Shown in pieces: positions 1,539-37,857 of a DNA stretch of 37,857 nucleotides. Made by a program: the position numbers and the translations under genes. The stretch's first letter is position 1. Every line of letters starts with the position of its first letter. The notes under the pieces were generated by a model that was given only the letters and a program-made list of their open reading frames with translations, made no database searches and was not told the origin of the DNA. Origin of the DNA: Candidatus Liptonbacteria bacterium (GTDB lineage Bacteria > Patescibacteriota > Minisyncoccia > UBA6257 > 2-01-FULL-56-20); assembly GCA_016212635.1 (NCBI GenBank), contig JACRFR010000045.1, positions 1-37,857 of the forward strand, given 5' to 3'.

Positions 1539-1567
1539 TTGAAAGCCAGCGGATATTTCTCTATACT
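1539..1567 (+). promoter_or_regulatory. Candidate promoter for prfA (TTGAAA-17-TATACT), located inside the longest ORF
   Basis: TTGAAA at 1539-1544 and TATACT at 1562-1567. This places the transcription start near 1574, so translation most likely begins at ATG 1586 or 1601. Confidence 0.5.
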
Positions 1568-1585
1568 ACAAGCACTTTAAAAATT

Positions 1586-2326: not shown

Positions 2327-2392
2327 CAAGTTTCTCCTTCTCCTTTTTTCAAGGAGTAAAATTGCTATATACTCAACTCGCTGGAAGCTGAG

Positions 2393-2929: not shown

Positions 2930-2940
2930 GCTTGGTGTAG

Positions 2941-3459: not shown

Positions 3460-3484
3460 TATTCGCGTTATTGGCGATTACTCT

Positions 3485-4546: not shown

Positions 4547-5979
4547 TATTTTTTGCCTTTAACGGTCTTTTCGACTATTTTTAAATGCAATTCTTCCAGC
4601 TGTTGCGGATCTACGGGACAAGGCGCGTCCATCACCGCGGTCTGGCCGCCGGAAGTCATCGGGAAGGCGATCACTTCGCGCAGCGACTCTTCGCCCGCCA
4701 AAAGCATGACATGCCGATCCAGGCCCAGAGCAATGCCGCCATGCGGGGGCGCGCCATATGAAAACGCTTCCAGCATGTGCCCCACGCTGGCTTCGATCTG
4801 TTCCTCGGTGTAACCCATGATGCGCAGGGTGGCGCGCAAAACTTCCGGGTCGTGGGCCCGGATACTGCCGCCGCCGACTTCATAGCCGTTACAAACCAGG
4901 TCATACTGGGTGGTCAGAATATCGCCGATATTCTTCCCGGCCAAATGATCCGTTAAATATTCCGGCATGGGCTGGCTGAACGGATTGTGGGTGAAGGTCC
5001 AGCCGCTCTTGCCGTCCCGAATCTCTGCCACATCCGCCCGATCCACTTTTTTGAAGAACGGGAAGTTGATCACCCAAGCAAAGGCCAACACTCCCTCCTT
5101 CTTTTCCTCTTCGGTCCGCAGGTCGAACTTATCCGCCTTGTACTTCTTCATCGCTTCGGCGTAAGCCACTACCGGGAACGGGTTTTGTTTTATTTTCCCG
5201 CCCACCTGCGTTACCGCTTGACGAACGACCTTTTCCACCATGGCCATAACATCCTGCTGCTCCACGAAACTCATCTCGATATCCACTTGGGTATGTTCGA
5301 AACCGCGGTCCGCTCGCAAATCTTCATCGCGGATACAGCGGGCGAATTGGAAATAGCGCTCCACGCCGGCAATCATTAGGAGCTGTTTATACTGCTGGGG
5401 CGATTGCGGTAAAGCGTAAAATTTCCCGGGCTGCATGCGCGACGGAACGATAAAATCCCGGGCGCCTTCTTTGGTTGCCTTGGTCAGCATGGGCGTCTCC
5501 ACTTCCGTAAAGCAGTTATCATAAAGGGCATCCCGGACGGCCCGAGCATATTTAGAGCGTAGCTGTAGAATCTTATTCAAGCGCGGGCGGCGTAGATCCA
5601 CGTAGCGATACCTTAAACGCACACTTTCGTCGATTTCATAGCCATCGCCATCGATCGGCAGGGGTAGAGGCTCGCTCGGGTTTAGGACGGTCAGGGCCTT
5701 GATCTCCACCTCGAAATTACCCGTGGGGAGATCCGGGTTCTCCATGCCCTTGGGCCGGCGCTTAACTTCGCCCTTAACGCGCACCGCCCATTCCGGCCGA
5801 ATTTTGCCCGCTTCTTGATAGAAGCTTTTCTCCGGCGTGATTACGCATTGCGCCACGCCGGAACGGTCACGCAAATCAAAGAAAATCAGTTTGCCATGAT
5901 CCCGCCGGGCATGGATCCAGCCCGCAAGCTCTGCCTCCTGACCAACTAGGCCAGTGATTTCATTAATGAGTGTGCGCAT
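4546..5979 (-). CDS. aspS: Aspartyl-tRNA synthetase, bacterial type but without the GAD insertion domain
   Basis: FFDLRDRSG, ALPQSPQQYKQLLM, FEHTQVDIEMSF and GGGSIR motifs are present. It is 477 aa. Its stop overlaps the downstream start as TAATG at 4544-4548. Confidence 0.9.
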   Translation of the reverse strand: MRTLINEITGLVGQEAELAGWIHARRDHGKLIFFDLRDRSGVAQCVITPEKSFYQEAGKIRPEWAVRVKGEVKRRPKGMENPDLPTGNFEVEIKALTVLNPSEPLPLPIDGDGYEIDESVRLRYRYVDLRRPRLNKILQLRSKYARAVRDALYDNCFTEVETPMLTKATKEGARDFIVPSRMQPGKFYALPQSPQQYKQLLMIAGVERYFQFARCIRDEDLRADRGFEHTQVDIEMSFVEQQDVMAMVEKVVRQAVTQVGGKIKQNPFPVVAYAEAMKKYKADKFDLRTEEEKKEGVLAFAWVINFPFFKKVDRADVAEIRDGKSGWTFTHNPFSQPMPEYLTDHLAGKNIGDILTTQYDLVCNGYEVGGGSIRAHDPEVLRATLRIMGYTEEQIEASVGHMLEAFSYGAPPHGGIALGLDRHVMLLAGEESLREVIAFPMTSGGQTAVMDAPCPVDPQQLEELHLKIVEKTVKGKK

Positions 5980-5995
5980 TCGGAAAATGACCGAA

Positions 5996-6021
5996 GAACT
6001 AATTAGTCTAATTATTCTAAG
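5996..6021. repeat. 26-bp sequence with an exact inverted copy at 17775-17800
   Basis: gaactaattagtctaattattctaag is the reverse complement of cttagaataattagactaattagttc. Confidence 0.85.
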
Positions 6022-6049
6022 GGGATTCTAATTCGTATATTCGTACTAA

Positions 6050-6078
6050 TTCGTATTTCGTAGCCAAATTGGTATAAT
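6050..6078 (+). promoter_or_regulatory. Candidate extended -10 promoter (TGgTATAAT) for the MgtC-family gene
   Basis: TG at 6070-6071 and TATAAT at 6073-6078. The -35 is weak (TTCGTA at 6050-6055). Confidence 0.4.
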
Positions 6079-6112
6079 TATCCGGTCGAAAGATTACTTT
6101 TAATATACATCG

Positions 6113-6613
6113 ATGCTGACCTTTTCGCAAATGCTGGTGCGGCTGGTGGTGTCCCTGATTTTAGGAGGACTGATGGGATTGGAGCGCGAAGTTTTGGGCA
6201 AGCAAGCGGGCGTGCGAACGTCCATGCTGGTTTCCGCGGGAGCGGCGATCTTTACTATGATTGCATTGGAGCTTCCGTTTCTGGTCAGTTCCGGCGGGGG
6301 TAATTTGCCAGATGTGTTGGCGCACAACAGCGGCTCTCTTAACGTGATCGCCAACATCGTAGTGGGTATCGGTTTTCTGGGTGCTGGTATCATTATCAAG
6401 ACGGGCGAGAAGGTACACGGCCTAACCACGGCCGCCTTGGTTTGGACCGTGGCGGGGATCGGCATACTGGTTGGGCTTGGCTACTTACCCTTCGCCATTG
6501 CCGCGGCGGTGATTATCCCCGGCACGATTTATATCTGGCGAAAATCTGGCATCTACGGGCGGTTCATCCCGGTGTCTGCGGCCGAACGGGAATCGGAGGA
6601 AAATTCTAGCTAA
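6113..6613 (+). CDS. MgtC/SapB-family membrane protein
   Basis: LILGGLMGLEREVLGKQAGVRTSMLVSAGAAIF is the MgtC-family signature. The protein is hydrophobic throughout. Confidence 0.8.
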   Translation: MLTFSQMLVRLVVSLILGGLMGLEREVLGKQAGVRTSMLVSAGAAIFTMIALELPFLVSSGGGNLPDVLAHNSGSLNVIANIVVGIGFLGAGIIIKTGEKVHGLTTAALVWTVAGIGILVGLGYLPFAIAAAVIIPGTIYIWRKSGIYGRFIPVSAAERESEENSS

Positions 6614-6615
6614 CC

Positions 6616-6724
6616 TTGAATTACGAAACTCCATCCTCCCCCTTGTTTAAGGGGGAGCCAGAGGGGGTCCTGGATTCTAGACCCCGCCTGACCTCGGGCA
6701 CAAAGTTACCAGTTTCGTAATTCC
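6616..6724. mobile_element. MITE-like element with ~13-17-bp terminal inverted repeats (GAATTACGAAACT)
   Basis: gaattacgaaact at 6618-6630 is the reverse complement of agtttcgtaattc at 6711-6723. There is an internal CCTCCCCC...GGGGGAG hairpin. Confidence 0.45.
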
Positions 6725-6890
6725 AGGTATATATGATTTTATCATGCTTTTCCGTGGTTTTCGCGGGATTGATTGACGAGCTGGTCACAAACTGCTAAGC
6801 TGGCCTTACAATTGAATCAGATGGTTTTTTAGGAATCCGTAGATGTTACGGGTTTTTTGTTAGGAAACATGCTGGTTCGGCGAGACATAA

Positions 6891-7367
6891 ATGAGCACTA
6901 TCTTAGTCAAAACAATCTCGATGGGGGTCGCCTCTTTGGCGCTCATCTCGCCGAGTTTCATCAATCCGCAATTCAGTTCCAATACTCCGAGTGCTGTAGC
7001 GTCGCAAGCGGATTTCTCCCAACCGACGCCGACCACTCAACCAGATGCCCTGGATGTTTGGTTGGAGCGTCTCGCCGAGTTGGAATCCCACGGCAAGGCC
7101 CAGTTGAAGATAGTAGATCATAACGGTTGGCATTCTTACAGTTGCTTGCAATTCCAAATGCCCACCTTTAAGGAGTACGTGGTTAAATACAACTTATTGC
7201 CGGAAGCAGAAGAGCCGGAATTGGAGAATATGATCTATGATTGCGATTTTCAGAAACAGCTGGCCAAGAAAATGCTGCTGGACGATCCCAGCAATTGGCA
7301 ACATTGGTATTTCTCGGTGATAGAAAAAGGGTTGGGCTTGCCGCCAATACATCTGGCAGAAAAATAA
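6891..7367 (+). CDS. Secreted small protein, possibly lysozyme/transglycosylase-like
   Basis: It has an N-terminal signal-like segment. ELESHGKAQLKIVDHNGWHSYSCLQFQ loosely resembles Rpf/SLT-type E-S...G...LQF cores. Confidence 0.4.
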   Translation: MSTILVKTISMGVASLALISPSFINPQFSSNTPSAVASQADFSQPTPTTQPDALDVWLERLAELESHGKAQLKIVDHNGWHSYSCLQFQMPTFKEYVVKYNLLPEAEEPELENMIYDCDFQKQLAKKMLLDDPSNWQHWYFSVIEKGLGLPPIHLAEK

Positions 7368-7380
7368 TGGAAAAGGCAGC

Positions 7381-7587
7381 TTACGCTGCCCTAAGAGTTA
7401 CCGCGACCACGGCCGACATCAGCGTTTCGGTGCGCTGATATTCGACCACCTGAATCGCGGTCACCTCTTGACCTTGGCCGCTGGCGGCCAAGGAAATTAG
7501 AGAGTTGAGGCGCGCTTCCAGCGCCTCATGTGTCGGCCGCTCATCCAGCGCGGCAGAGCTGGATGCCGAGAAAAAGCGAATTTTCAT
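7381..7587 (-). CDS. Small hypothetical protein (68 aa)
   Basis: AAGGAGG sits 7 nt upstream of the ATG at 7587. The longer ORF to 7629 is probably not used. Confidence 0.5.
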   Translation of the reverse strand: MKIRFFSASSSAALDERPTHEALEARLNSLISLAASGQGQEVTAIQVVEYQRTETLMSAVVAVTLRAA

Positions 7588-7605
7588 GACCACACCTCCT
7601 TGATT

Positions 7606-7614
7606 ATTATAACA
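7606..7614 (-). promoter_or_regulatory. Candidate extended -10 element (TGtTATAAT) for the 68-aa gene
   Basis: The reverse complement of attataaca is TGTTATAAT. Confidence 0.35.
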
Positions 7615-7630
7615 AATGTTAATCTCCAAG

Positions 7631-7667
7631 AAACAAACTCCCCCGACTTGAGTCGGGGGAGTTTTTT
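7631..7667 (-). terminator. Rho-independent terminator after RNase P RNA
   Basis: CTCCCCCGAC-loop-GTCGGGGGAG stem flanked by an A-run and a T-run. On the minus strand it reads stem + TTTGTTT. Confidence 0.75.
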
Positions 7668-7673
7668 ATGCGA

Positions 7674-8242
7674 TTAACCGGCAACCCATAAGCCGGATTC
7701 TGTCCCCTCTCGCCTACGGCGAGAACGCTGATTCACGCCGATTTCTGCGCCGATTCACGCTAATGGGCTAGTCCCCATCTGCACTTATCTGGGTGTTTTA
7801 TCCGCGTTAATCCGCGTCTAGTCTGCGCTTATCCGCGATCTTGTAGTAGACAAGAGAGTGATGATCATTTATCTGGGCCCTCGATTACTCTCGGGCTCAA
7901 GCGAGCACTCCGCGCGCGCAGCGCGCTCATCAGCGAATTGCAAATGAAAACCGAATTTACGAATTCGTATATTCGTAACCGATTCGTTATTCGTTGATAA
8001 CGTGCTGCGCACGCGACACGACTCTTGCGCCCAGTAAGGGTTTAGCCGTTTCACTTTCGCCTTACGGCGAAATTATTCCCGAAGGAATTCCCTCGGCTTT
8101 CGCCTCGGGACGTCTCTGTTCGCACCTCTAAGCTTGCGCTCGACGGCTGTTAGCCGCTACCTTTGGTCCCGCTAAGCGGGACCGGGTGTCCGGACTTTCC
8201 TATCCCGCCGAGGCGGGATCGATCATCTAGGTTGCCAGCTGC
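7674..8242 (-). ncRNA. rnpB: RNase P RNA (bacterial type A-like core) with ~170-200 nt of extra helices
   Basis: In RNA sense, GGAAAGTCCGG is the reverse complement of 8190-8200, GCTTGAGCCC of 7893-7902, and ACAGAATCCGGCTTAT of 7688-7703. P1 can form between CTGGCAACC (5') and GGTTGCCGG (3'). Confidence 0.85.
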
Positions 8243-8246
8243 TTTG

Positions 8247-8274
8247 GTTATACCTCCTGGGCAAAAATTGTCAA
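8247..8274 (-). promoter_or_regulatory. Candidate promoter for rnpB (TTGACA-16-TATAAC)
   Basis: -35 is the reverse complement of 8269-8274 and -10 the reverse complement of 8247-8252. The predicted start coincides with the inferred P1 5' end near 8240. Confidence 0.5.
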
Positions 8275-8298
8275 AACCGTGTATGGGGCCACCCTATT

Positions 8299-8346
8299 TG
8301 TTCGAGGCCCGACCACGAACAGTAGTGTTCGAGGTCGGGCCTCGAT
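8299..8346. repeat. REP-like hairpin, GAGGTCGGGCC family (copy a)
   Basis: ttcgaggcccgacc ... ggtcgggcctcga inverted repeat, intergenic. Confidence 0.7.
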
Positions 8347-8355
8347 ACATGATAA

Positions 8356-9168
8356 TTAAAATTTAGCCTTCCCCGTCAACTCGATGATTCTCTTAAACTC
8401 CTTCGGCCTCAAACTGGCCGCACCGACCAGAACACCGTCAATTTCGGGGTGGTTTAAATAACTTTGTGCATTTTTGACGTTGACCGAACCGCCGTAGAGG
8501 ACGGGGGTGGTGAGTAGAGAGTAGCGAGTAGAGAGTAGAGATTTAATGGAACGGATCATTTCTACTACATCCGCAGGTTTTTCCAAACCTCCCCCTTCCC
8601 CCTCCTTAGCAAGGAGGGGCTTGGGGAGGTTGGTCGATATAGCCCAGACGGGCTCGTAGGCGAGGATTAAGCGAGTAGCGGGTGGGGAGTAGGGAGTAGA
8701 GTTGATACCGGAGAGACAGGCACGAAGTTGAGAGGCGACAAACTTCTTCGAGGCAGCAATCCCCTGCCTGCGAATTGCGAATGTTTCGCCGACACAGAGA
8801 ATCACCTTGAGGCCGGCCCGGAGCGCGGCTTGAACTTTTTTCGCTACCATCTCGTCCGTCTCCCCCATCGCTCGCCGCTCGGAGTGACCTAGAATGACGT
8901 ATTTTGCGCCAAGCTTTTTAAGCATGGCCGGAGAAACTTCGCCGGTGAATGGTCCCGATGCTACCTCTGGCCCGCAGTTTTGGGCCCCTAGGGAGAAGCG
9001 GGCAGAGAGTAGTGAGTAGAGAGTAGAGGAAAGAAATGGGAACGGTGGGCAAATAACCACTTTGGCGTGCTTGTTCTTATCCGCCGCCACTCCTGCCGCG
9101 CGGGCCAGCTTTTGGGCCTCGGCGTAAGTAGTCGGATTCATCTTCCAGTTAGCGATAATTAGTTTCAT
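8356..9168 (-). CDS. tpiA: Triosephosphate isomerase
   Basis: ANWKMN, GHSERR, YEPVWAI, YGGSV and GAASL motifs are all intact. Confidence 0.92.
   Translation of the reverse strand: MKLIIANWKMNPTTYAEAQKLARAAGVAADKNKHAKVVICPPFPFLSSTLYSLLSARFSLGAQNCGPEVASGPFTGEVSPAMLKKLGAKYVILGHSERRAMGETDEMVAKKVQAALRAGLKVILCVGETFAIRRQGIAASKKFVASQLRACLSGINSTPYSPPATRLILAYEPVWAISTNLPKPLLAKEGEGGGLEKPADVVEMIRSIKSLLSTRYSLLTTPVLYGGSVNVKNAQSYLNHPEIDGVLVGAASLRPKEFKRIIELTGKAKF
8586..8630. repeat. Nested 45-bp palindrome embedded in frame in tpiA
   Basis: aacctcccc..cccctccttagcaaggagggg..ggggaggtt encodes NLPKPLLAKEGEGGGLEKP, ~10 aa longer than the usual loop after the YEPVWAI motif. Confidence 0.7.
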
Positions 9169-9236
9169 TGATTGAAATTATAGCACTAAAATCGAATGGT
9201 GGCGCAGGGAATAACAAACCTCCACAAATCGAGTCC

Positions 9237-9917
9237 TTACTTCTCTTGTTTTTCCCAGATGTCGTAACCGCTGTTTGGGTGTAGATTTAAGAATTCGACG
9301 TTCTCTTTCCTCGCGCCATATAAAATATCGTAATGCACATCTATCCCAAACACGATTCCCTCTGGTTTAAGCGCGCGAGCGATTTCTCGTCCCAGGGCGT
9401 ATCGGTACTCTTGAACCGGCAAAATTTCATGATCTATTCCATTCAGGGCAAAATTGTCTGCGGTGGTGAGCTGGGAAACAAAACGGAGCATGTCTTCTGG
9501 GATAATGTGAAAGTTTATGTACGGCAATCTTTCTATCCTTGGGGCAAGCTGATCGGATGGCGACTGGGAGTAATAATCTACATTGATATAATCTTTAACC
9601 CCACATATCGCCATTAGTTCGTAGAGTGCGCAGTCCCGGCCTCCACCCAGATCAAACACCGTCTGGCCAGCCAGTCTTTGCTTCATAAATTCCAGCAATT
9701 TAGCTAATTTTTCCCGTCGGGGGTAATTTTTTGGCAAAAGACGAACTTCTCCTCTGTCCCCTAAAAGTAGGTTCCACTTGTAGGCGAAAGAGGTTCTCAA
9801 TCTATCCTCTATAGTTGGCTTTAGAGTCGCTTCAATAAGTTGCTCATACTCCGCCGCCCGCGGATTGTCGTATTTGGGCAGATCCAATATTGATTTTCTT
9901 TCCGGTCGCTCGAACAT
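9237..9917 (-). CDS. Class I SAM-dependent methyltransferase-like protein
   Basis: VFDLGGGRDCAL motif I-like, with a later acidic motif after a beta strand. GC is lower than in flanking DNA. Confidence 0.5.
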   Translation of the reverse strand: MFERPERKSILDLPKYDNPRAAEYEQLIEATLKPTIEDRLRTSFAYKWNLLLGDRGEVRLLPKNYPRREKLAKLLEFMKQRLAGQTVFDLGGGRDCALYELMAICGVKDYINVDYYSQSPSDQLAPRIERLPYINFHIIPEDMLRFVSQLTTADNFALNGIDHEILPVQEYRYALGREIARALKPEGIVFGIDVHYDILYGARKENVEFLNLHPNSGYDIWEKQEK

Positions 9918-9968
9918 AGCGGTGTCAGCGGACAGGCGGGTTTCCCCGCCGTTATTTGTGCAATAATT

Positions 9969-11153
9969 CTACTCTCCCGAGCGGGCAAGGGGCATATTTA
10001 TCTTCCTTCCTAATTCACTCTCGAGTTTTCTTATATCAAGCCCTGCTCCCGAAAAACGATCTATAAGTGTGGGATCTTTAGGAGTATTCCTTTCATCATC
10101 CAGACTTTCCAACTTAAAGCCGCATGGCATCTCGTAACCCAAAATTTCAGAATTGACCACCATTGAGCCTTCTGCCTGCCGCAGCTTGTTTATCTCTTCT
10201 ACAGGCACGCCATCCTGAACTGCCAGGGGCGTATACGGCCGTTCCATATATTTGTTGTTCACTGTGGCGCCAGTTCTTAAAAGTATCTCTTGCGGTGTCA
10301 GAATCCTGTCACGCTTTCCTGTCTCAAAAGAAAGTTGCTTGAGAACTTTAATGTTTTTGTCTAGACCGATCGACACTCCTTTGTCAAGAATGAGCTCTTG
10401 GTAACGCTTTTCCAACTCGGCAGATGTCAGCCCTCCGTCCGTATATAGGGCAAGGTCATTCAGGATAACCGCTGCTCTTTCACAATCATCGACAATGGCG
10501 ATCCATATCGTTTTTAGTTCATTGAGTATTTCGTCCTCGCGCGCCCTGACTTCCTCGCGTCTTTGCGCTGTTAAAAAATGGTACGGATCTTTGGTCGCTT
10601 CTGTGTCAACGTTGCCGGTCGCGCGCCCTGTTTCTAAATCAAGTGCCGTTAGCCCCGCCAAACGGCGGGCCCGATCCATTCGTTCAATTGTATAGGTCTG
10701 ACCATCTTCCATATTTTCAATTCCCTTTTCACGTAATTTTACTCTTAATATTGGGACTGGTACGTCGGGATCAGTTTCCCAATAGATTCCTCCGTATCCC
10801 GAACTACCTACTTGTTGGTGTTCGCGCGGGGTAGACATGGCCCCATCAAAGAGGAAACCTTTCTCGTCCGTTATTCCTTCAATCTCATCGAGCAGGGACT
10901 GCATTCTGCCAACATAGGCCCGAGGAACTCTATCCAAAAAACGATGCGCCAATTCTATGTTAGATTGGCCCTTTTGCAACAATTCTTGATATCGCACTGG
11001 TAACTCATCCAATTTTCTGTGGAGATCGGTCAAAACGGCGTCGTATTTCTTTCTTGCGTTATCAAGCCAAAACAACTTCCGCCGCTCGGGATTTTCATCG
11101 TACTCATCATCTTCGGTAATCTCTGGCCCAATTGGAAATATAGGATCTTTCAT
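9969..11153 (-). CDS. Hypothetical protein (394 aa), no recognisable domain
   Basis: Long uninterrupted ORF with charged, cytoplasmic-looking composition. Confidence 0.6.
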   Translation of the reverse strand: MKDPIFPIGPEITEDDEYDENPERRKLFWLDNARKKYDAVLTDLHRKLDELPVRYQELLQKGQSNIELAHRFLDRVPRAYVGRMQSLLDEIEGITDEKGFLFDGAMSTPREHQQVGSSGYGGIYWETDPDVPVPILRVKLREKGIENMEDGQTYTIERMDRARRLAGLTALDLETGRATGNVDTEATKDPYHFLTAQRREEVRAREDEILNELKTIWIAIVDDCERAAVILNDLALYTDGGLTSAELEKRYQELILDKGVSIGLDKNIKVLKQLSFETGKRDRILTPQEILLRTGATVNNKYMERPYTPLAVQDGVPVEEINKLRQAEGSMVVNSEILGYEMPCGFKLESLDDERNTPKDPTLIDRFSGAGLDIRKLESELGRKINMPLARSGE

Positions 11154-17814: not shown

Positions 17815-18246
17815 TCATATCCCCAACTCCCCCAACTTCTCCGCGATCTCTTCCGAGGCGCCTTCGGTTTTCTGTTTATATAGCCGCCATACCTCGGAGT
17901 CCCAAATTTCTATGCGATTGTAGAGCCCGGCGACGACCACGGCGCGCTTTAAGCCGGCATACTTGCGCAGGTAGTCCGGTACCAGGATCCGTCCCTGGCT
18001 ATCCAGTTCTACATCCATCGCTCCGGCCAGCATTAAACGCGAGAAGGCGCGGGAGTCGGCCCGGGCCAGCGGCAGAGCCACCAATTTTTCCGCCAAGATC
18101 TGCCACTCTTTAGCGGTAAAGACGAACAGGCAGCTATCCAGGCCGCGGGTGATGATCGCTCCTCCCGTTAACTTTTCCCTAAACTTCGCCGGGATGGCGA
18201 CTCGACCTTTGCTGTCTAAATTGTGTTGATATTCGCCGAGTAGCAT
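17815..18246 (-). CDS. mraZ: Transcriptional regulator MraZ
   Basis: MLLGEYQHNLDSKGRVAIPAKFR, and a second SpoVT/AbrB-like repeat DSQGRILVP. Confidence 0.9.
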   Translation of the reverse strand: MLLGEYQHNLDSKGRVAIPAKFREKLTGGAIITRGLDSCLFVFTAKEWQILAEKLVALPLARADSRAFSRLMLAGAMDVELDSQGRILVPDYLRKYAGLKRAVVVAGLYNRIEIWDSEVWRLYKQKTEGASEEIAEKLGELGI

Positions 18247-18252
18247 GGAAAT

Positions 18253-18337
18253 AGTGAGTGGCGAGTAGCGAGTAGCGTGGCGAGTAGCGAGGACCCATCT
18301 TCCATCTTTCCCTACTCTCTACTCCCTACTCTCTACT
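18253..18337. repeat. Long imperfect hairpin built from GAGTAG / CTACTC hexamer repeats, abutting the mraZ start codon
   Basis: gtgagtggcgagtagcgagtagcgtggcgagtagcgagg opposes ccctactctctactccctactctctac. Confidence 0.7.
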
Positions 18338-18518
18338 TGCTTCTTGATGTGGAGTAGAGGGCAGGCGGTAGGCACGAGGTCGCTGTTTGGCCTGGGGGAG
18401 GTCGACAGTTGGTCTGTCCACCGCCCGCCCTCCGGACTTGTGGTATTTGGGATCTCTTTTTTTATGAGTGCGGTTGGCCGTTGGACCAATCCGTAACTTT
18501 GTCCCCAGAATGGGGTAC

Positions 18519-18585: not shown

Positions 18586-18749
18586 AAAGCGGCTCGGACG
18601 GAATGCGAGCATCGAAAATGTATTGAATTACCTACACTACTCTCCTTTTCGCCCAGCTACTTATCAACAAGTTATGAACTTGCCCCGTCGGGAACAAGCG
18701 GGAGTGGATTCCCCACCCGGTTAAACCACCCATGGGGCGGTTTGTAATT

Positions 18750-18792
18750 TTCCGAGGTCGGGCCTCTAAAATTCCCCGAGGTCCGACCTCTC
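18750..18792. repeat. REP-like hairpin, GAGGTCGGGCC family (copy b)
   Basis: ccgaggtcgggcctc taaaattcccc gaggtccgacctc. Confidence 0.7.
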
Positions 18793-18944
18793 ACATTCAA
18801 TGCCCAACGCTGGGACCAGCGATTTCACTTGGACGTCATTCCGGCCCTCGAGCCGGAATCTACGTCTTGCAAACACGCAAAATATGGATTCGGAAGCAAG
18901 CTCAGAACGACACAAAAACAGTGAGGCGCGCAGGTCCTATTGAA

Positions 18945-22037: not shown

Positions 22038-22083
22038 AAACCACGGGGCGACCCGGGGCGACCTTCGTGCTGTCATATAGCTT

Positions 22084-22123
22084 CCGAGGTCGGGCCTTGG
22101 GGAATTCTTAAGGCCCGACCTCG
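22084..22123. repeat. REP-like hairpin, GAGGTCGGGCC family (copy c, inverted loop)
   Basis: ccgaggtcgggcctt ggggaattctt aaggcccgacctcg. Confidence 0.7.
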
Positions 22124-22188
22124 ATGAATTCGAACCCCGCATCTTATTTCCGCCGGCTCATGAGTAGTGGCTGATTGAGGACGGCGTT

Positions 22189-22318
22189 GCGCTGTTCGAA
22201 AACATTGATTCCCCCGCTTGCCGAGTGTCATCCCGGGCTTGACCCGGGATCCAGTGACTAAGGAAACCTGGATTCCGGCTTTCGCCGGAATGACAAACCT
22301 GGGGTTTTCGAACAGCGC
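22189..22318. mobile_element. MITE family 1, copy 1 (15-bp TIR GCGCTGTTCGAAAAC; 9-bp TSD GGACGGCGT)
   Basis: The TIRs at 22189-22203 and 22304-22318 are perfect reverse complements. GGACGGCGT is present at 22179-22187 and 22320-22328. Confidence 0.8.
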
Positions 22319-22460
22319 CGGACGGCGTAGAATTCCTCCGCGGGTAGGTTGTAATTTCCCGAAGTCGAACTTCTCAAGCGCTGATTTGCGCAGAAAAGTC
22401 CCGACCTTTAAATATCAGTTACCTCGGCAACGATCCCGTCGCAACTCCAGCCACACCCAT

Positions 22461-23467: not shown

Positions 23468-23520
23468 TTTATAATTATCAACGAATTGCGAACTGGTTGC
23501 GAATTTTCGAATTCAATTCT

Positions 23521-23592
23521 TCGAGGTCGGGCCTCAAAAATCCCCGACCGTGCCCGCCGTAGCTTTTCAGCGTAGGCGGGAGGCCCGACCTC
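23521..23592. repeat. REP-like hairpin, GAGGTCGGGCC family (copy d, with nested second hairpin) in the rplJ-rplL spacer
   Basis: tcgaggtcgggcctc ... gcccgccgtagc ttttca gcgtaggcggg ... gaggcccgacctc. Confidence 0.7.
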
Positions 23593-23650: not shown

Positions 23651-24145
23651 TCACGACTTTTTGGATTGCTGATCCAACACGAACATGAACGAACGGATAG
23701 GAGCGGCTAGCATACCCACCAGCTGCCCCAAGAGCACTTCCCGCGGCGGCAGTTGGCCGATCATGGTTACATTTGCCGCTTCCAGGTAGGTTCGAGTGCC
23801 AATGTCATAAGCGCCAAGTATCTTATTTGCTTCCAGCTTCAACCCGCGGAAGAATTTATAGATGGTCGCCGCCACATTTTCCAAAGCGCCCGTGGAGAAA
23901 ACCGTGCCCACCGCGCCGTCAAAGCGCGTGGTGTCCAGTTGGTGTCCTTTCTGCTTGAAGAGCACATTCAACAACCGCTTCTTGATAACCAAAAGTGGCG
24001 CTCCCGCTTGGCGCAGGTCGCGACGCAACTTGCGCAGCTCCTCGGTCGGCACCTTGCTGAAATCGGTGAAAACCAGTACCTTGCTCTCGGCGAGTAATTG
24101 CTCTGCTTTGTCCAATTCCGTTTTTTTCTGTTGTTTGGTCTTCAT
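23651..24145 (-). CDS. rplJ: 50S ribosomal protein L10
   Basis: The length, position upstream of rplL, and LRKLRRDLRQAGAPLLVIKKRL are typical of L10. Confidence 0.9.
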   Translation of the reverse strand: MKTKQQKKTELDKAEQLLAESKVLVFTDFSKVPTEELRKLRRDLRQAGAPLLVIKKRLLNVLFKQKGHQLDTTRFDGAVGTVFSTGALENVAATIYKFFRGLKLEANKILGAYDIGTRTYLEAANVTMIGQLPPREVLLGQLVGMLAAPIRSFMFVLDQQSKKS

Positions 24146-24215
24146 GGGATTCTCTGCGAATTACAAATTTGTACTAATATACGAATGGGACCTATATTTT
24201 TCGTATATTCGTATG

Positions 24216-24292
24216 TTTTCGTATTTCGTAGCTAATTTGCGACCTTTTCGTATTTCGTAGCTAATTTGCGACCTTTTCGTATTTCGTAGCTA
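24216..24292. repeat. 29-bp tandem repeat, 2.65 copies
   Basis: ttttcgtatttcgtagctaatttgcgacc occurs at 24216-24244 and 24245-24273, with a partial third copy to 24292. Confidence 0.9.
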
Positions 24293-24296
24293 AAAA

Positions 24297-24505
24297 TAAA
24301 AAACCCCGCTTCCGGCGGGGCTGCGCACTGTCATTCGAATGTGCCCATTCGTTTCCTCCGGAGGAGGATCCGCCCTAGGCGGAAAGGCAATTCGCATACA
24401 GCGCACTCCTCGGTGGGTCTCATACCCTTTCGGGTAGCCCAGTCCGACCTTGTGTCGGACCCCCGATTTCCGGCTTTCTGGAACATCAGGGCGGTCTTCG
24501 GAAGC
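24297..24505 (-). ncRNA. Candidate ~210-nt structured leader/attenuator RNA upstream of rplJ (possible L10-leader analogue)
   Basis: It is bounded by a consensus-like promoter and an intrinsic terminator (CCCCGC-CGGAA-GCGGGG + T6). It contains several stable hairpins. The overlapping ORFs look spurious. Confidence 0.4.
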
Positions 24506-24511
24506 AAAAAT

Positions 24512-24540
24512 ATACTACTTCTGCCTGGTACGGTTGTCAA
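24512..24540 (-). promoter_or_regulatory. Candidate promoter (TTGACA-17-TAGTAT) for the rplJ leader
   Basis: -35 is the reverse complement of 24535-24540 and -10 the reverse complement of 24512-24517. Confidence 0.5.
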
Positions 24541-24549
24541 ATTGAGGGG

Positions 24550-24670
24550 GCGCTGTTCGGAAACGTCAAAAAGTTATTCCCTGAGCCCGTCGAAGGGTAG
24601 CTTTTTGGCGGGTACATGGCATGGCCCTCGACAAGCTCGGGCAATAAAATCGGTGGTTTCCGAACAGCGC
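24550..24670. mobile_element. MITE family 1, copy 2 (TIR GCGCTGTTCGGAAAC; 9-bp TSD AATTGAGGG)
   Basis: TIRs lie at 24550-24564 and 24656-24670. AATTGAGGG is present at 24540-24548 and 24672-24680. The internal sequence differs from copies 1 and 3. Confidence 0.75.
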
Positions 24671-24738
24671 CAATTGAGGGATACGCTTGAGGGATACGCT
24701 TGTCCGGTATTTACCCGGATGGTGGCACCTCAAGCGGA

Positions 24739-24915: not shown

Positions 24916-26580
24916 TCAGTTTGCGGTCCGCAATAACTCCGCGTAAGCCCGAAGCATTGCGGAATCAGGTGAACGCGCCAAGAGGGACCGCATTTCCTTC
25001 TCCGCCTCGGTCTGTTTATCTTCAGGGATCGAGGTTGGATCCAAAAACGGATTTACTATTTTAATGCCGTATTGGTCGATCACTACCCGATTCTCCGGCG
25101 TATTCCGTACCAGCAAAATCGCGGCGTCGTCCCAATAAACCAACCGGAAATTGTGCTTTTCGATCAGCGCCCGCTGAAGCGGCGCGACTACTCCGTCCAG
25201 CGGCTGGCGGTACCAAAGCAAAAAGTAATTCAGACGGTAGTGGTCGAATGCGAGCTGCTCCCAACCCGGCCGCATCTGGGCAATGGTCAAAAAATCTTGC
25301 GCCGGCCGCCCGGCAGAGGTTTCCGCCCGGCCGTCCAGAAAAACCTTGTACTTGGGATACAGCCGCCACTCCAGGTAGCCGCCGTCGTGGGCAAAGTTGA
25401 ATCCCGGCCCGGCGATACCCGTCTGCCCTAAAAAATCAACTGCTTGAGTGGCCAGAATATGGGTGCCCACCGGCTCCCGGGGCCAAGCGAGCAACCCCCG
25501 AGACAAAAGCGCGATGCCCAAGATAGCTGCCGCCGCGACTCCGATGCGCCTGAAAGCCCGCGCGTTCAGTCTGGCGGCTAACTTAGCGAAAACCCCAGAC
25601 TGGGAAAGCTCTGTCGCTAAGAGCGGAGCGGCGACCAGTGGAAAATATCCGACGTGTCGGATCGCGAGCAGAGGCATGAGAGAAACGCCCAAAACTAAAC
25701 CGGTGCGGGTTAGATGCGGCTTGCGATCATGCAGGAATTTAAAAACCAGCAATAGATCCACGGCCGTCATCAGAGCCAGGAATAATTTGGCCTGCGGGAT
25801 GGCGAGAAAGTCCAGGAGCGAGCGCCACTCCGCCACGTTCAAGAGAGCGTGAGTGTCGCGAATGAAATAGTAGTAAAAAACCGACTGGTAGGTGTTGGGG
25901 TTTAGAAACGCGAAGACTAGGGCCGCGAGTCCGGCATAAATAAACCGGCGCCGCTCCCGGGTCGAGAGTGCCGGCGCCCCCCAGCGCCGCAGTTTGCTCT
26001 TTAGTATGTCCGCCAAGCCGTACCAACAAATCGCCGCCAAACCCAAAAGCACGCTGGCGTGAGCATTAGCCCAGAACCAGATCAAAAACACCAGCCCGAC
26101 CAGATACGCCGTTTTCGGCCAGCGCCAATAAGAATCCAGCAGAAGCACCGCCGCCGCGAGTAGAAAGTAAGATAGCACTTGCGGCCGGACCACCCACTGT
26201 TCCAGAGTCAGATAGGCGACCGGAAAGAGAACCGCGAGCGCCCAGTACGGATGAGCGCCCCAGCGGCGAGCCAAAAGAAAAACCAGGTAGTAGGTCAGTG
26301 TGCCGAGGAGCGCGATCCCGGTTATGAGCCCCCACGGTCCAAAGGCAACAATAACCAAGTAGAAAAGAATTTGGATCAGCCACTCGTGACTGATCCAACG
26401 GCCACCGGGGTTAGTGAAAGTGAAACTATCGGTGGTCGGCACTGACCGAGTTTCCACCATCAGCCGCCCCGCGGACAGGTGGTAAAAAGTATCAAAATCT
26501 CGGATCTGATTGAAAGAAAAAACGAAAAATATGCCCAGGAGTAAAAGCAGAAAGACTTTCTGGGCCCGGGTGAGGGTCAT
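24916..26580 (-). CDS. Polytopic membrane protein, putatively a GT-C-fold glycosyltransferase (ArnT/PMT-like)
   Basis: ~12 predicted TM segments followed by a ~130-aa soluble C-terminal domain. Assignment is by architecture only. Confidence 0.4.
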   Translation of the reverse strand: MTLTRAQKVFLLLLLGIFFVFSFNQIRDFDTFYHLSAGRLMVETRSVPTTDSFTFTNPGGRWISHEWLIQILFYLVIVAFGPWGLITGIALLGTLTYYLVFLLARRWGAHPYWALAVLFPVAYLTLEQWVVRPQVLSYFLLAAAVLLLDSYWRWPKTAYLVGLVFLIWFWANAHASVLLGLAAICWYGLADILKSKLRRWGAPALSTRERRRFIYAGLAALVFAFLNPNTYQSVFYYYFIRDTHALLNVAEWRSLLDFLAIPQAKLFLALMTAVDLLLVFKFLHDRKPHLTRTGLVLGVSLMPLLAIRHVGYFPLVAAPLLATELSQSGVFAKLAARLNARAFRRIGVAAAAILGIALLSRGLLAWPREPVGTHILATQAVDFLGQTGIAGPGFNFAHDGGYLEWRLYPKYKVFLDGRAETSAGRPAQDFLTIAQMRPGWEQLAFDHYRLNYFLLWYRQPLDGVVAPLQRALIEKHNFRLVYWDDAAILLVRNTPENRVVIDQYGIKIVNPFLDPTSIPEDKQTEAEKEMRSLLARSPDSAMLRAYAELLRTAN

Positions 26581-30576: not shown

Positions 30577-30756
30577 TTACTTACCAGAGATTTTAACTTC
30601 TTTGTGTGTCGTTTGCTTGCGGCACCAGGGACAGAACTTTTTGAGTTCGATCTTACGGGTCACTAGCTTCTTGTTCCGGCGGGTGTAGTAATTCCGGCGC
30701 TTGCAGGTACCGCACCGGAGTCCGATCAAGTTGTCCGAGTATTTAACTTTAGCCAT
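30577..30756 (-). CDS. rpmG: 50S ribosomal protein L33 (59 aa; below the ORF-track size cutoff)
   Basis: Manual translation gives [59 protein letters not shown]. Confidence 0.85.
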
Positions 30757-30765: not shown

Positions 30766-30794
30766 ATGCTATCATACCGCTCGATTATTGGCAA
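30766..30794 (-). promoter_or_regulatory. Candidate rpmG promoter (TTGCCA-17-TAGCAT, TG-extended)
   Basis: -35 is the reverse complement of 30789-30794 and -10 the reverse complement of 30766-30771. The -35 directly abuts the MITE target-site duplication. Confidence 0.4.
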
Positions 30795-30803
30795 CTGATT
30801 TCA

Positions 30804-30934
30804 GCGCTGTTCGAAAACGACCTTTTCTCTTATCCCTCTCGGTCATCCCGGGCTTGACCCGGGATCCAGGATCCTGAAAAACCTGGATTCCCGCTTTCGC
30901 GGGAATGACAACCCCCCTGGTTTTCGAACAGCGC
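30804..30934. mobile_element. MITE family 1, copy 3 (TIR GCGCTGTTCGAAAAC; 9-bp TSD CTGATTTCA), inserted in the 3' end of a Nudix gene
   Basis: TIRs lie at 30804-30818 and 30920-30934. CTGATTTCA is present at 30795-30803 and 30937-30945. The core is nearly identical to copy 1. Confidence 0.8.
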
Positions 30935-31417
30935 ACCTGATTTCAGATATGCGGCGACGGCCGGGCGGACATTGTCGATCAGATTCAAGTCGGTTGCTTC
31001 CGATGGCGAAATCCAACGGAATTCGTCGTGATCCTGACCCAGTTTGACTTCCCCGTCCCCTGCCCGGCACCGAAAATAAACTCCCACGATTTGCCACTTC
31101 TCGCCGCGCACTTCTGGTCGCCACTCGCCCACATAAAAAGGCTCGCCGACTTCCGCGGTCAATCCGGTTTCTTCCAAAACCTCCCGCTTCAAGCTTTCAT
31201 CGAATCGTTGTCCCGGTTCCACCCGCCCGCCAGGCACATCCCACCGCCCGGCATTCGTTCCGTCGGCATAAACATTGGACTCCCGCAGAACCAAAATCTT
31301 CCCATCCCGCTCCAAAAAAGCCTTAGTGGCTACGAAGATTCTGTCCACTTTGTCCATCATCATTTCTTTTTGCCAAATTCCCCAAACGATTCTGGAGCTA
31401 TCCGCCTTACGTGACAA
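30830..31417 (-). CDS. Nudix hydrolase whose last ~33 codons are MITE-derived
   Basis: Nudix box GGRVEPGQRFDESLKREVLEETGL. The tail ALFENQGGCHSRESGNPGFSGSWIPGQARDDREG is encoded by the MITE. The true start is probably MMMDK near 31363. Confidence 0.8.
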   Translation of the reverse strand: MSRKADSSRIVWGIWQKEMMMDKVDRIFVATKAFLERDGKILVLRESNVYADGTNAGRWDVPGGRVEPGQRFDESLKREVLEETGLTAEVGEPFYVGEWRPEVRGEKWQIVGVYFRCRAGDGEVKLGQDHDEFRWISPSEATDLNLIDNVRPAVAAYLKSGALFENQGGCHSRESGNPGFSGSWIPGQARDDREG

Positions 31418-31590: not shown

Positions 31591-31731
31591 TCGTTCCTCG
31601 CGTATCCGACATTTTCCATTTTATCCTTGAGCCGTCGGCCCTCCTTCGCTAAAGCTTCGGCGGGGCAAGTCGGAATTTCGCTATCCCCTTTTCACTACTC
31701 TCTACTCGCCACTCACTACTCACTTTCCTTG

Positions 31732-33068: not shown

Positions 33069-33185
33069 CACCTCCCCTCGCCCCTCCTTAGAACAGGAGG
33101 GGGACTACACCTCCCCTCACCCCTCCTTAGAACAGGAGGGGGACTACACCTCCCCTCGCCCCTCCTTGGAAAAGGAGGGGAAATG
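33069..33185. repeat. 39-bp tandem repeat x3, each unit containing a CCCCTCCT-N7-GGAGGGG hairpin
   Basis: cacctcccctcgcccctccttagaacaggagggggacta is repeated at 33069, 33108 and 33147 (the last unit is diverged). Confidence 0.9.
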
Positions 33186-33262
33186 AACTGTCCCTAGGTT
33201 AGCAAAAACGGCCCGAAAATCCAATGAGTTCGGCGCAAAATACTGGGAAACCATTAATTTTT

Positions 33263-33303
33263 AGAGGTCGGGCCTTAGAAAATCTCCCAAGGCCCGACCT
33301 CGG
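33263..33303. repeat. REP-like hairpin, GAGGTCGGGCC family (copy e)
   Basis: agaggtcgggcctt agaaaatctccc aaggcccgacctcgg. Confidence 0.7.
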
Positions 33304-36400: not shown

Positions 36401-37857
36401 GTCGCTCTGTTCCGCCCGGGCCCGATGGAACTGATCCCGTCGTACATCAAACGCAAAAACGGCGAAGAAAAAATTGCCTACCTCCACCCCAAACTGGAAC
36501 CGATCCTCAAAAATACTTATGGCATCGGCGTCTACCAGGAACAGATGATGCGGATCGCCCGCGACTTGGCGGGCTACACCCTGTCGGAAGCCGACACCTT
36601 GCGCAAAGCGATTGGCAAAAAGATAAAATCGCTTTTGGACGAGCAGGAGGAAAAGCTGGTCGCCGGCATGACTAAAAACGGCATCGCTCCGAAAGCCGCC
36701 AAAGCCATCTGGGAACTCTTCCCGCCATTCGCGCGCTATGGGTTCAATCGCTGCGTAACCGGCGATACTCAAATTAATGACCCGGTTACCGGACAATTAG
36801 TTGCGGTGGAGGAGCTGTTCCGGGATAAGACGCGGCTGGCGCAAACTTATTCGATTGATCAGGGCGGCAAAGTTTTCACCAACGGCATCACCGACATTCT
36901 GGATAATGGACCGAAAGACGTTTATTCGGTCAAGACTAAGAGCGGCCGGAAGATCAAGGCCACCGCGAATCATCCCTTGCTCACGCCTCAAGGGTGGCGG
37001 AAACTGGAGGATATTGAGGCCGGCACCCGAATTGCAGTACCGCGAATCCTGCCCGAGCCGGCACAACCGCTTGCCGCCCAGCATCACCGCGCCGCCTTGC
37101 TGGGCTACCTTTTAGCCGAAGGCAATTTGTGCCATCCGCACGGCTTTTATTTCTATTCCGCCTCCGAAGCGGAAATAACGGACTATATCCAAAATCTGGA
37201 AAAATTCGACAACACCGTTGCCGTGATTGATCGCTCCAAACCTGCGGCCTCGGTTTACGCAAAGCGCAAAGATGTTAAGCGGATCTCGGCGGCAGTCGCC
37301 TGGGTAGAATCTCTGGGCATGAAAAATAAAACCGCTACCCAAAAGACCATTCCGGATTGGGCCTGCCGGCTCGCCAACGAGGATTTGGCGGTGCTGATCG
37401 CGAAAATGTTCCAGGGAGACGGCTGCCTGCACCTGCGCGGCGTTAATCCCCAGATATACTACGCCACTTCCTCGCACCGCTTGGCGCAAGGACTGCAGCA
37501 TTTGTTGCTGCGCTTCGGTATTTTGTCCACGATCCACCAAAAGGGATTTAAATATCGGGGCACGATCAAGCCCGGCTACACGGTATCAATCGGCCGCCAT
37601 GACAATATCGGCAAATTCATTGCCAATTTTATGCAACATTTTGTCGGTCAGAAACAGGCGGTTGCCCGAGAAATATTAAGGGGGCACCCGATCTTGAATC
37701 AACTACCTCGCAGCAAGCTGACGAGGTATGAACTGAAAACTACCCAAGTGGTGTCATTCCGGCCCCCGCATCAAGTGCGGGGCGAGCTTGGAGCCGCCTG
37801 TCCGCCTCCGGCGGAGAATCCAGGTGGGAATACTGAATGGATCCCGGATATTTTTCA
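33401..37857 (+). CDS. dnaE: DNA polymerase III alpha subunit, 5' part (open to window end), interrupted by two inteins
   Basis: Manual translation in the frame of ATG 33401 gives MTKFVHLHTHSHYSLLDG (PHP), GRGSAAGSLVSYVLGIT, PDIDMDF, KMDFLGLRNLT, GVFQFE, then after intein 1 SSGMRRY...LFRPGPM...YGFNR. The ORF track omits it because it has no stop in the window. Confidence 0.92.
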   Translation, partial: MTKFVHLHTHSHYSLLDGLSQIPDLVARVKELGMDMLAVTDHGVLYGAVEFYKTARKAGIKPILGMETYVAPKSRLARDSNERYYHLILLAENDVGWHNLIQLSTKAHLEGFYYKPRVDKELLREHHAGLIATSACLGGELSQLLLQGEYDTAKRVALEYRDIFGAGNYFLEHGEHPHIPDAVKVKPLLIQLARETGIPLVAAQDSHYLRPEDGEYHDVLLAVQTSNRLADDDRLSMKADNFAILSPDEMAAKYADLPEAIENTVRIGERCNVTLELDKVILPDFPKPEGETADQYLRELVETRLPGRFPERAVAPEVRERLEFELGVIQKTGYADYFLIVQDLINWAKTHGIAVGPGRGSAAGSLVSYVLGITGVNPLTYDLLFERFLNPDRIQMPDIDMDFADKRRDEVIAYVRQKYGSDRVAQIITFGTMAARAAIRDAGRAMGLPYNLCDQVAKLIPFNMNLAEAIKKVPELAEFYQNPETKKLLDTARHLEGVARHASVHACGIVISKEPLVNIVPLQLAPQDKDSIVTQLEMHSIEDLGLLKMDFLGLRNLTTIEETVRLVRELHGETIDIANIPLNDPATFTLLQRADTSGVFQFECLSGDTMISNTTLKKLYERRNRKTLESVYVDEGKVHRNTILGIAKSGKKDVYTLIADNNWFIKATAEHSFLTENGWKKLKNIRPGEKVLLRTKARHLVYNTCLTCRKQIDGQKNGKSRFCYACSAAHFKNPSKDISRTKMREARRNFFRNGGRTWNLGVTTENNEVWRETARKISQALTGVSIEDRWGAERATEIKRRFSERFRGAGNPMFGRRSPHRKGGIRPDLGHYVRSNWEADFARILNYFKTGYQYEPKTFRLTRGDGSAVSYTPDFYVPTTNTFYEIKGWLHELDQEKMDLFQTQYPEYNFVLVNKTKFAELALQYRDLVAWECPKIPEKNFEFVKVREVKYSGIEETYDIAMQAPGNNFVANGFVVHNSSGMRRYMKDIHPTELEDLVALVALFRPGPMELIPSYIKRKNGEEKIAYLHPKLEPILKNTYGIGVYQEQMMRIARDLAGYTLSEADTLRKAIGKKIKSLLDEQEEKLVAGMTKNGIAPKAAKAIWELFPPFARYGFNRCVTGDTQINDPVTGQLVAVEELFRDKTRLAQTYSIDQGGKVFTNGITDILDNGPKDVYSVKTKSGRKIKATANHPLLTPQGWRKLEDIEAGTRIAVPRILPEPAQPLAAQHHRAALLGYLLAEGNLCHPHGFYFYSASEAEITDYIQNLEKFDNTVAVIDRSKPAASVYAKRKDVKRISAAVAWVESLGMKNKTATQKTIPDWACRLANEDLAVLIAKMFQGDGCLHLRGVNPQIYYATSSHRLAQGLQHLLLRFGILSTIHQKGFKYRGTIKPGYTVSIGRHDNIGKFIANFMQHFVGQKQAVAREILRGHPILNQLPRSKLTRYELKTTQVVSFRPPHQVRGELGAACPPPAENPGGNTEWIPDIF
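35210..36334 (+). mobile_element. Intein 1 (375 aa) in dnaE with a non-LAGLIDADG, PD-(D/E)xK-like endonuclease insert
   Basis: It starts CLSGDTM directly after GVFQFE, has block B ATAEHSF, and ends NGFVVHN followed by S. The insert contains CLTCRK...CYAC, NPMFGR-type repeats and SNWEADF...YTPDFYV...FYEIKG. Confidence 0.8.
36752..37857 (+). mobile_element. Intein 2 in dnaE (LAGLIDADG type), incomplete at window end
   Basis: It starts CVTGDTQI after YGFNR (splitting the conserved YGFNKSH motif). It has ATANHPL, and LAGLIDADG-like LLGYLLAEGNL and LIAKMFQGDGCL. Confidence 0.8.

Follow-up and report, generated by a model that had tools for sequence, protein, structure and literature searches.

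A 37,857-nucleotide stretch of DNA from Candidatus Liptonbacteria bacterium (contig JACRFR010000045.1, analysed over its whole length and hereafter called the window) contains three MITEs (miniature inverted-repeat transposable elements), and they belong to a family that inserts, in almost all cases, base-precisely at the upstream edge of promoter -35 boxes. We analysed the targets at all 18 loci where elements of the family were found, which gave 34 distinct and independent flanks, each read outward from the element end. The exact hexamer TTGACA was found at positions +9 to +14 in 11 of them, and a hexamer with one mismatch (TTGCCA, TTGACG or TTTACA) was found there in three further flanks; in one case the hexamer was shifted by one base. 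With a background frequency of TTGACA in these loci of 2.0e-4, this corresponds to P = 5.8e-33. The last duplicated base of the target is the first T of the -35 box (written below as T/TGACA, the stroke marking the edge of the duplication). Downstream of every hexamer in register, at a spacing of 16-18 nt, there is a -10-like hexamer that matches in 4 to 6 of 6 positions and, wherever gene calls exist, a gene in the correct direction follows the promoter-like site. A target preference had been no more than a hint in the original prediction, an annotation made from the sequence of the window; of all the properties of the family it proved the strongest.

The same register was seen in the source metagenomes, where the flanks of the right end of the type found in the second window copy read TGGGCGCGT/TGACA, CCGCAACCT/TGACA, AGCTCACGT/TGACC and AATGACTAT/TGACT. 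Within the window there are seven exact TTGACA hexamers, one of which is occupied. The idea that the -35 box could be part of the element was considered and rejected: only its first T is within the duplication, it is present on a single side, and eight site-specific bases separate it from the end of the element, so that the hexamer must be assigned to the target DNA. Full-text literature searches returned no precedent for the targeting of a promoter -35 hexamer by an insertion sequence (IS) or a MITE.

The three elements and the Nudix gene

The inverted end GCGCTGTTCG(A/G)AAAC has six exact occurrences in the window, forming three inverted pairs, to be compared with a mean of 0.21 matches to this 15-mer in the shuffled window even when up to two mismatches were allowed. 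Between the outer ends of these repeats the elements measure 121-131 bp; the terminal inverted repeats are perfect over 15 bp, or over 16 bp (GGCGCTGTTCGGAAAC) in copy 2, and only spurious short open reading frames (ORFs) cross the elements. A different 9-bp direct repeat is found at each of the three sites, the chance of such a 9-mer match being 3.8e-6 at one fixed register and about 1e-4 when 25 registers are allowed. Because inverted ends are found together with target-site duplications that differ site by site, the reading of the three elements as real non-autonomous transposons, products of transposition, is confirmed. They are non-autonomous because the window has no transposase: none was detected in Pfam scans of its 30 ORFs of at least 110 aa, 11 of which had no family match at all. 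On the ends, the signature of transposition and the lack of a transposase nearby, the original prediction was right.

Comparison across the family indicates that the element ends include one extra base per side (GGCGCTG...CAGCGCC) and that the duplication abuts that base. In this extended register copies 1 and 2 fit perfectly, with duplications of 9/9. Copy 1 extends from 22188 to 22319 (132 bp including the outer bases T...C), with repeats GCGCTGTTCGAAAAC at 22189-22203 and 22304-22318, two hairpins as cargo (H1 at 22227-22254 and H2 at 22267-22294) and the duplication GGACGGCGT at 22179-22187 on the left and 22320-22328 on the right; as DNA it folds at -38.7 kcal/mol (z = -7.1). Copy 2 (24549-24671, 123 bp) has the perfect 16-bp GGCGCTGTTCGGAAAC, which also forms the ends of the intact IS described below, with its 15-bp repeats at 24550-24564 and 24656-24670. 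It carries a hairpin pair, CCCTGAGCCCGTCGAAGGG / GCCCTCGACAAGCTCGGGC, that is unlike those of copies 1 and 3, and it is flanked by AATTGAGGG at 24540-24548 and 24672-24680, base 24540 at the start of the left duplication being the first T of a minus-strand -35 box. Copy 3 extends from 30803 to 30935 (133 bp, with outer bases A...A instead of the G...C of the family) and has repeats GCGCTGTTCGAAAAC at 30804-30818 and 30920-30934, H1 at 30842-30869 and H2 at 30882-30909. Its duplication in the family register is ACTGATTTC at 30794-30802 and CCTGATTTC at 30936-30944, an 8/9 match. The repeat originally proposed for this copy, CTGATTTCA at 30795-30803 and 30937-30945, is a true 9-mer repeat but is shifted by one or two bases at the ends of the element, and in the family register the claim of three 9-bp duplications holds in full for copies 1 and 2 only.

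Copies 1 and 3 have a common interior made of H1 (GTCATCCCGGGCTTGACCCGGGATCCAG) and H2 (CCTGGATTCC(G/C)GCTTTCGC(C/G)GGAATGAC), and neither hairpin occurs in the window outside these two copies. All copies form long and very stable stem-loops, with z from -6 to -10 for DNA and folding energies from -61 to -76 kcal/mol for RNA, and no match to the elements was found in Rfam at the gathering threshold or at E <= 1. H2 follows the pattern ATTCC[C/G]GC-GAAA-GC[G/C]GGAAT (window 30874-30914 and 22247-22345), which presumably fits the ATTCCC-N8-GGGAAT pattern of the Neisseria dRS3 repeats. The depth of the hairpin words in the four groundwater metagenome runs where the window contig is present was 2,516-135,951 for H2 and 114-3,652 for H1, while unique flanks, present in two of these runs, had about 6-7. 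The H1 and H2 modules have therefore spread well beyond this transposon. The interiors of the MITEs are interchangeable hairpin modules placed between the same ends, and their abundance exceeds that of the host genome in the same samples by a factor of 100-10,000. Nothing relevant was found in full-text literature searches on the sequence of the hairpin, on the peptides typically translated from it and on MITEs in bacteria of the candidate phyla radiation (CPR).

Two further matches to the ends, with two mismatches each (GCGCTGATCGAAAAG and GCGCTGGCCGAAAAC, at 25147-25171 and 26111-26125), are located within the ORF of a 554-aa membrane protein (24916-26580). They are probably due to chance, or possibly relics of ends.

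Copy 3 has rewritten the end of a Nudix hydrolase gene (30830-31357, minus strand, 175 aa), the last 34 codons and stop of which come from the element and lie within 30830-30935. The translation as found ends in ...AAYLKSGALFENQGGCHSRESGNPGFSGSWIPGQARDDREG-stop and, once the element and one repeat are removed, in ...AAYLKSVANNRAV-stop, as had been predicted. In the protein ...AAYLKS is followed by the 34 residues encoded by copy 3 (33 in the earlier count), which replace the last seven native codons; the ancestral tail VANNRAV-stop was displaced to 30771-30794. The 119 homologues listed, nearly all of 137-147 aa, cover no more than 73-80% of the 175-aa query. Of these, 18 were aligned: save three with short unrelated extensions, they stop at the AYLK position or a few residues from it, and the tail encoded by copy 3 was found in none of the 18. 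The element-encoded nature of this tail is thereby shown.

Both copies 2 and 3 had been described as lying against -35 hexamers, and a consensus scan placed promoter-like sites directly at their duplications. The first, TTGACA-N17-TAGTAT (24512-24540, minus strand), is upstream of rplJ (23651-24145, minus strand), adjoins the duplication of copy 2 and fires away from the element. The second, TTGCCA-N17-TAGCAT (30766-30794, minus strand), with a TG preceding the -10 hexamer, is upstream of rpmG (30577-30756, minus strand), adjoins the duplication of copy 3 and is located inside the ancestral 3' end of the Nudix gene. Since the restored end of this gene holds the rpmG promoter, gene end and next promoter already overlapped before the insertion. 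Copy 3 is found in the Nudix gene because that promoter is there, and insertion at the upstream edge of the -35 box explains both the rewritten tail and the adjacency to the promoter. Any effect that the MITEs may have on transcription is one that we infer.

In the minus strand, hairpin H2 of copy 3 (30887-30906, ATTCCCGCGAAAGCGGGAAT then CCAGGTTTTT) was scored as terminator-like in the direction from the Nudix gene to rpmG, and the H2 of a metagenomic element (locus L235) has the same orientation relative to its -35 box. Between the promoter-like site of rplJ (24540-24512) and the start of the gene (24145) there are tandem repeats of 29 bp (24200-24297) and a hairpin that resembles a terminator and has a T-run (24322-24302, minus strand). 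Rfam gave no match to the L10 leader in the region upstream of rplJ (24149-24330); this stretch could act as a leader or an attenuator, or else encode a small RNA.

Relatives and a candidate autonomous partner

Further members of the family were looked for in several collections. A strict scan for paired ends in 185,579 GTDB species genomes gave no match, and a relaxed scan (10+10) of the GTDB genomes gave at least 119, nearly all attributable to chance in high-GC genomes. The only clear member among them was an element of 125 bp in Ca. Staskawiczbacteria (L228), with a 9/9 duplication (ATTAAATAA) and another hairpin interior. A 110-bp element in Xanthomonas massiliensis (L219 3632-3741) has a 25-bp inverted repeat with the same first ten bases (GCGCTGTTCGCGTTCGGTAGGGATG) and flanking repeats CTTGCGATA; the shared decamer notwithstanding, this MITE may be unrelated. 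In viral contigs a scan for single ends gave 111 single matches, with no inverted pair among the 80 listed, which is consistent with chance. The JGI metagenomes provided six loci, including MITEs with at least three kinds of interior.

One of these metagenomic loci (L233 2042-2989) contains an element of 948 bp that has identical 16-bp ends, is flanked by the perfect duplication AATTTTTTA and in which a DDE transposase gene has decayed by one frameshift, one in-frame TGA and a change of the catalytic E to K. The read-through version of this gene, used as query, retrieved 116 protein clusters, most of them of 294-317 aa and with PF01609. Among them P0137 (307 aa) is intact and is found in a 954-bp element (L238 632-1585) with ends GGCGCTGTTCGGAAAC and duplication CGGGGTGGT, next to genes typical of small genomes. 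More IS copies of 937-949 bp with the same ends were detected in L237, L243, L254, L255, L256 and L257, with perfect 9-bp duplications in L243, L254 and L255. The IS copies are 70-80% alike in DNA, and several pairs can be aligned solely over the terminal 24-26 bp, where they match at 96-100%. The similarity between MITEs and IS is limited to the terminal 15-23 bp, and here the end variants correspond: the GAAAAC of copies 1 and 3 is exactly that of the IS in L257, and the GGAAAC of copy 2 is that of the other IS copies. The guess of an enzyme of the IS1, IS4 or IS5 kind was thus borne out by an IS of the IS5 family with identical 16-bp ends and 9-bp duplications in related metagenomes. From the shared ends and duplication length, its transposase very probably mobilises the MITEs in trans.

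P0137 matched PF01609 (DDE_Tnp_1) with 53.4 bits (cut-off 23), and its best NCBIfam model was IS5_2 (NF033579), over model positions 34-287 of 289. In 13 homologues D118, D194 and E249 are invariant, as is the signature Y(2)R(3)E(6)K (including R245 and K256). The AlphaFold model has a mean pLDDT of 68, that is, moderate confidence, and a search with this fold gave weak matches only, all of them transposases or integrases of the RNase H fold (best E about 0.008, none at E <= 0.001). No match was found in a sequence search of the PDB, and when a sigma-4-like helix-turn-helix was sought with Pfam in the N-terminus of the transposase, only an insignificant match to MerR appeared. A tblastn search of 72,556 plasmids (E <= 1e-3) listed solely records of Thermus, Aquifex and Legionella. 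In its anatomy (9-bp duplications, GGC ends and a single ORF) the putative partner IS fits the IS903 group of the IS5 family. The IS6 family had also been considered, as the ends resemble those of IS26, but it was dropped because the duplications have 9 bp instead of 8 and the transposase is of the DDE_Tnp_1 type.

Within the IS no stop codon closes the transposase ORF. Its C-terminal residues W-F-P-N-S-A are encoded by the right end of the element, and translation then enters the target DNA; where this end is the one that abuts a -35 box, exactly three codons of the target are read before the TGA of TTGACA closes the frame. The ends encoded in this way by the target are ..NSARGG-stop (L238 1580-1600), ..NSAENY-stop (L254 2390-2406), ..NSATFS-stop (L256 2370-2387) and ..NSAPDD-stop (L257 2368-2385). 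The 3' end of the IS faces the -35 box in five of the seven copies that could be oriented.

A more distant branch of IS, represented by P0192 (54% identity; L244 1956-2900, L246 and L248-L253), has ends AAGGCTGTTCGAAAACCATAGCC. In several contigs it is found beside a Y1_Tnp (IS200-like) gene, and one right flank is common to three different left flanks.

Regarding the number of copies, the interior of copy 3 had a unitig depth of 27-38 and its flanks 6-7, a 4-6-fold difference, and at least one additional junction contig has a different flank and about the same depth as the host genome. For the copy 2 type the right end reached 157-270, compared with 5-7 for the host genome, and an identical copy-2 element was found in another contig, from a sample in which the host genome is nearly absent. 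Perfect ends, two perfect duplications out of three and the extra near-identical copies speak in favour of recent activity, though less firmly than the term "active-looking" had suggested.

Mechanism, alternatives and known systems

Taken together, we consider it likely that the MITEs have been moved by an IS5-family DDE transposase that chooses T/TGACA as target; both the mobilisation in trans and the direct recognition of TTGACA are parts of this account that we infer. An IS903-like transposase of the IS5 family, encoded by the IS of about 950 bp with ends GGC..., would bind the shared 16-bp ends GGCGCTGTTCG(G/A)AAAC, cut the target with a 9-bp stagger and join the element there. The transposition complex would select T/TGACA, the cut making the last duplicated base the first T of a sigma-70-type -35 hexamer, and the element would land directly upstream of a promoter firing away from it. 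In a compact CPR genome this type of landing would spare the gene and the promoter core. Copy 3 would have struck the rpmG promoter in the last Nudix codons, and the frame that runs 34 codons into the element would be a by-product. A more specific proposal, on which we find the arguments about evenly balanced, is that this CPR lineage of DDE transposases reads the sigma-70 -35 hexamer itself or docks on a promoter-bound sigma factor or RNA polymerase, promoters serving as safe landing sites and the ORF ending at the TGA in TTGACA.

Several results weigh against this account. No -35-like hexamer is found in register on either side of copy 1 or of the elements in L236 and L237, and the outermost base of the element differs among the three window copies (T, G and A). 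The window has no autonomous IS. In run X1 no contig was at least 80% similar to the IS of L233 (the decayed copy being the reference), and run X2 had only a diverged relative, at a depth of about 5. Empty-site joints were not found for any of the three copies in the Logan contigs of four runs, a search restricted to assembled contigs, which drop rare variants. In six elements the flanking duplications do not match and the two sides are unrelated, which is what recombination between copies, or an assembly that is chimeric across repeats, would produce; the general phenomenon is described in PMC11708052. On the curated IS5 equivalog NF033579 P0137 scored 91 bits, below the cut-off of 140, which indicates a divergent lineage. 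In the plasmid search no enterobacterial record was listed and the best matches were ISTth7-like genes at about 25% identity. Given the low similarity to named elements and the score under the cut-off, the placement in the IS903 group rests on anatomy and not on sequence clustering.

The elements might instead be retained for a function in the host, as terminators or insulators between the upstream gene and the next promoter, their mobility being historical. The very stable hairpins in all copies would fit this, as would the H2 with a T-run reading toward the promoter in copy 3 and L235 (the copy 3 site being scored as terminator-like) and the huge abundance of the hairpin modules in the community. 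The terminator-like orientation, though, is found in two copies only, the long outer stem has no T-run, and the region has 14 terminator-like sites against the 14.5 expected from shuffling. We regard such retention as unlikely, and it would be compatible with transposition as their origin.

Essentially random insertion, followed by purifying selection that keeps only those insertions located just upstream of promoters in a gene-dense genome, appears quite unlikely to us. CPR genomes are indeed compact, with the end of the Nudix gene even overlapping the rpmG promoter, and three elements are not beside a -35-like hexamer; besides, MITEAba12 and ISAba12 have no target consensus beyond AT-richness (PMC6382973). 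Selection, nevertheless, would accept any site upstream of the -35 box, and the register is fixed to the base in 11 exact and three near-exact cases (P about 6e-33 against the background hexamer frequency) and is kept in the flanks from the source samples. That hairpin arrays similar to repetitive extragenic palindromic (REP) sequences owe their spread to recombination or to an enzyme of the Y1 (RAYT) type, with outer repeats and 9-mers that are incidental, is very improbable and already contradicted: the cargo hairpins are far commoner than the inverted ends (depth 2,516-135,951 versus 27-38), which suggests that they spread independently, and a Y1_Tnp gene is near some related IS copies, but identical ends enclose different cargos, the 9-bp duplications are site-specific, and both the ends and the length of the duplication recur in an element that bears a transposase.

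Transposition by the IS5-family enzyme has parallels in described systems, of which ISAba12/MITEAba12 is, by analogy, the closest. These Acinetobacter elements of the IS5 family have 16-bp ends (GGCTTTGTTGCACAAA) and 9-bp duplications, and the likeness between them is limited to the ends (PMC6382973). The resemblance extends to a MITE of about 113-135 bp, to 16-bp ends starting with GGC and to a partner IS of about 1 kb with a single DDE transposase; GGCTTTGTTGCACAAA and the CPR end GGCGCTGTTCGGAAAC have 9 of 16 positions in common. MITEAba12 differs in having one conserved interior and no such target consensus, whereas the CPR family has several unrelated interiors and the fixed T/TGACA register, and no close similarity of its transposase to the enzymes of enterobacteria or Acinetobacter could be detected. 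Within IS5, elements of the IS903 group make duplications of 9 bp and the other groups of 2-6 bp (PMC3281130 Table 2). The Paracoccus members of the IS903 group listed there also have inverted ends of 15-27 bp and one transposase ORF with DDE_Tnp_1, but the CPR IS is shorter (937-954 bp versus 1,050-1,054 bp) and its ORF, devoid of its own stop, ends in target DNA. ISTth7 of Thermus ("IS5-like element ISTth7 family transposase"), the best match among annotated plasmid records, with an identity of about 25% across 94% of the protein, differs in its ends (GGGCTTGCCTTGCAAAGG) and showed no visible 9-bp duplication at the two copies inspected.

Rickettsia palindromic elements are inserted in frame within protein genes. 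They also join a coding sequence without destroying the protein, as an internal segment, while the CPR element replaces the C-terminal tail. IS1397 inserts in the loops of REP sequences and IS4321 in the ends of Tn21. Insertion of the ISAjo2/IS1202 group at dif sites is target-specific (PMC10132070). All these target-specific IS are found at a fixed distance from a short recurrent functional motif, which in the CPR family is the -35 hexamer.

MITE/IS pairs of the IS5 family are well known and the element itself is ordinary; what is unusual is the base-precise insertion at the -35 box and, besides, the variety of hyper-abundant hairpin modules between the same ends. If recognition of the -35 box is direct, the enzyme would be a natural promoter-seeking integrase. 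Such targeting would also help to map the promoters of uncultured CPR bacteria, and it would show by what means mobile DNA can persist in very compact genomes without killing genes. Where a promoter is located inside the end of the upstream gene, insertion gives rise to rewritten C-termini, and annotators of metagenome-assembled genomes should expect tails such as ...HSRESGNP... or ...IPGQARDD....

Other repeats and genes of the window

The window is the entire contig; it has a GC content of 53% and its nearest protein relatives are in named Patescibacteria and related CPR lineages. The Pfam matches of its ORFs are to housekeeping families, among them RF-2-like, GreA, an AsnRS/LysRS-type synthetase, TIM, a MurE/F-type ligase, PBP, MraW, MraZ, RidA, L7/L12, L10, three Nudix proteins and others; the L7/L12 protein of the window, when looked up, had no entry of its own on record. 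A second family of intergenic repeats, with the core CGAGGTCGGGCCT and often in inverted pairs, was found at 8323-8342, 18745-18808, 22077-22116, 23514-23553 and 33255-33294, one of its copies being about 70 bp from MITE copy 1. Repeats rich in GAGTAG/CTACTC are present in both strands of several intergenic regions (8490-9035, 18234-18344 and 31676-31725). Directly downstream of tRNA-Thr, a 39-bp unit is repeated three times in tandem (33069-33195), each with a small hairpin (CCCCTCCTTAGAACAGGAGGGG).

At the beginning of the contig (1-483, minus strand) the 5' part of a 16S rRNA gene spans only model positions 1-280 in 483 bases, and an insertion within the gene is therefore implied. Insertions in 16S rRNA genes are frequently reported for CPR bacteria. 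At the opposite end (37690-37857) there are more hairpin repeats (GTCATTCCGG... and CTCGCAGCAAGCTGACGAGG), which probably explain why the assembly stopped there.

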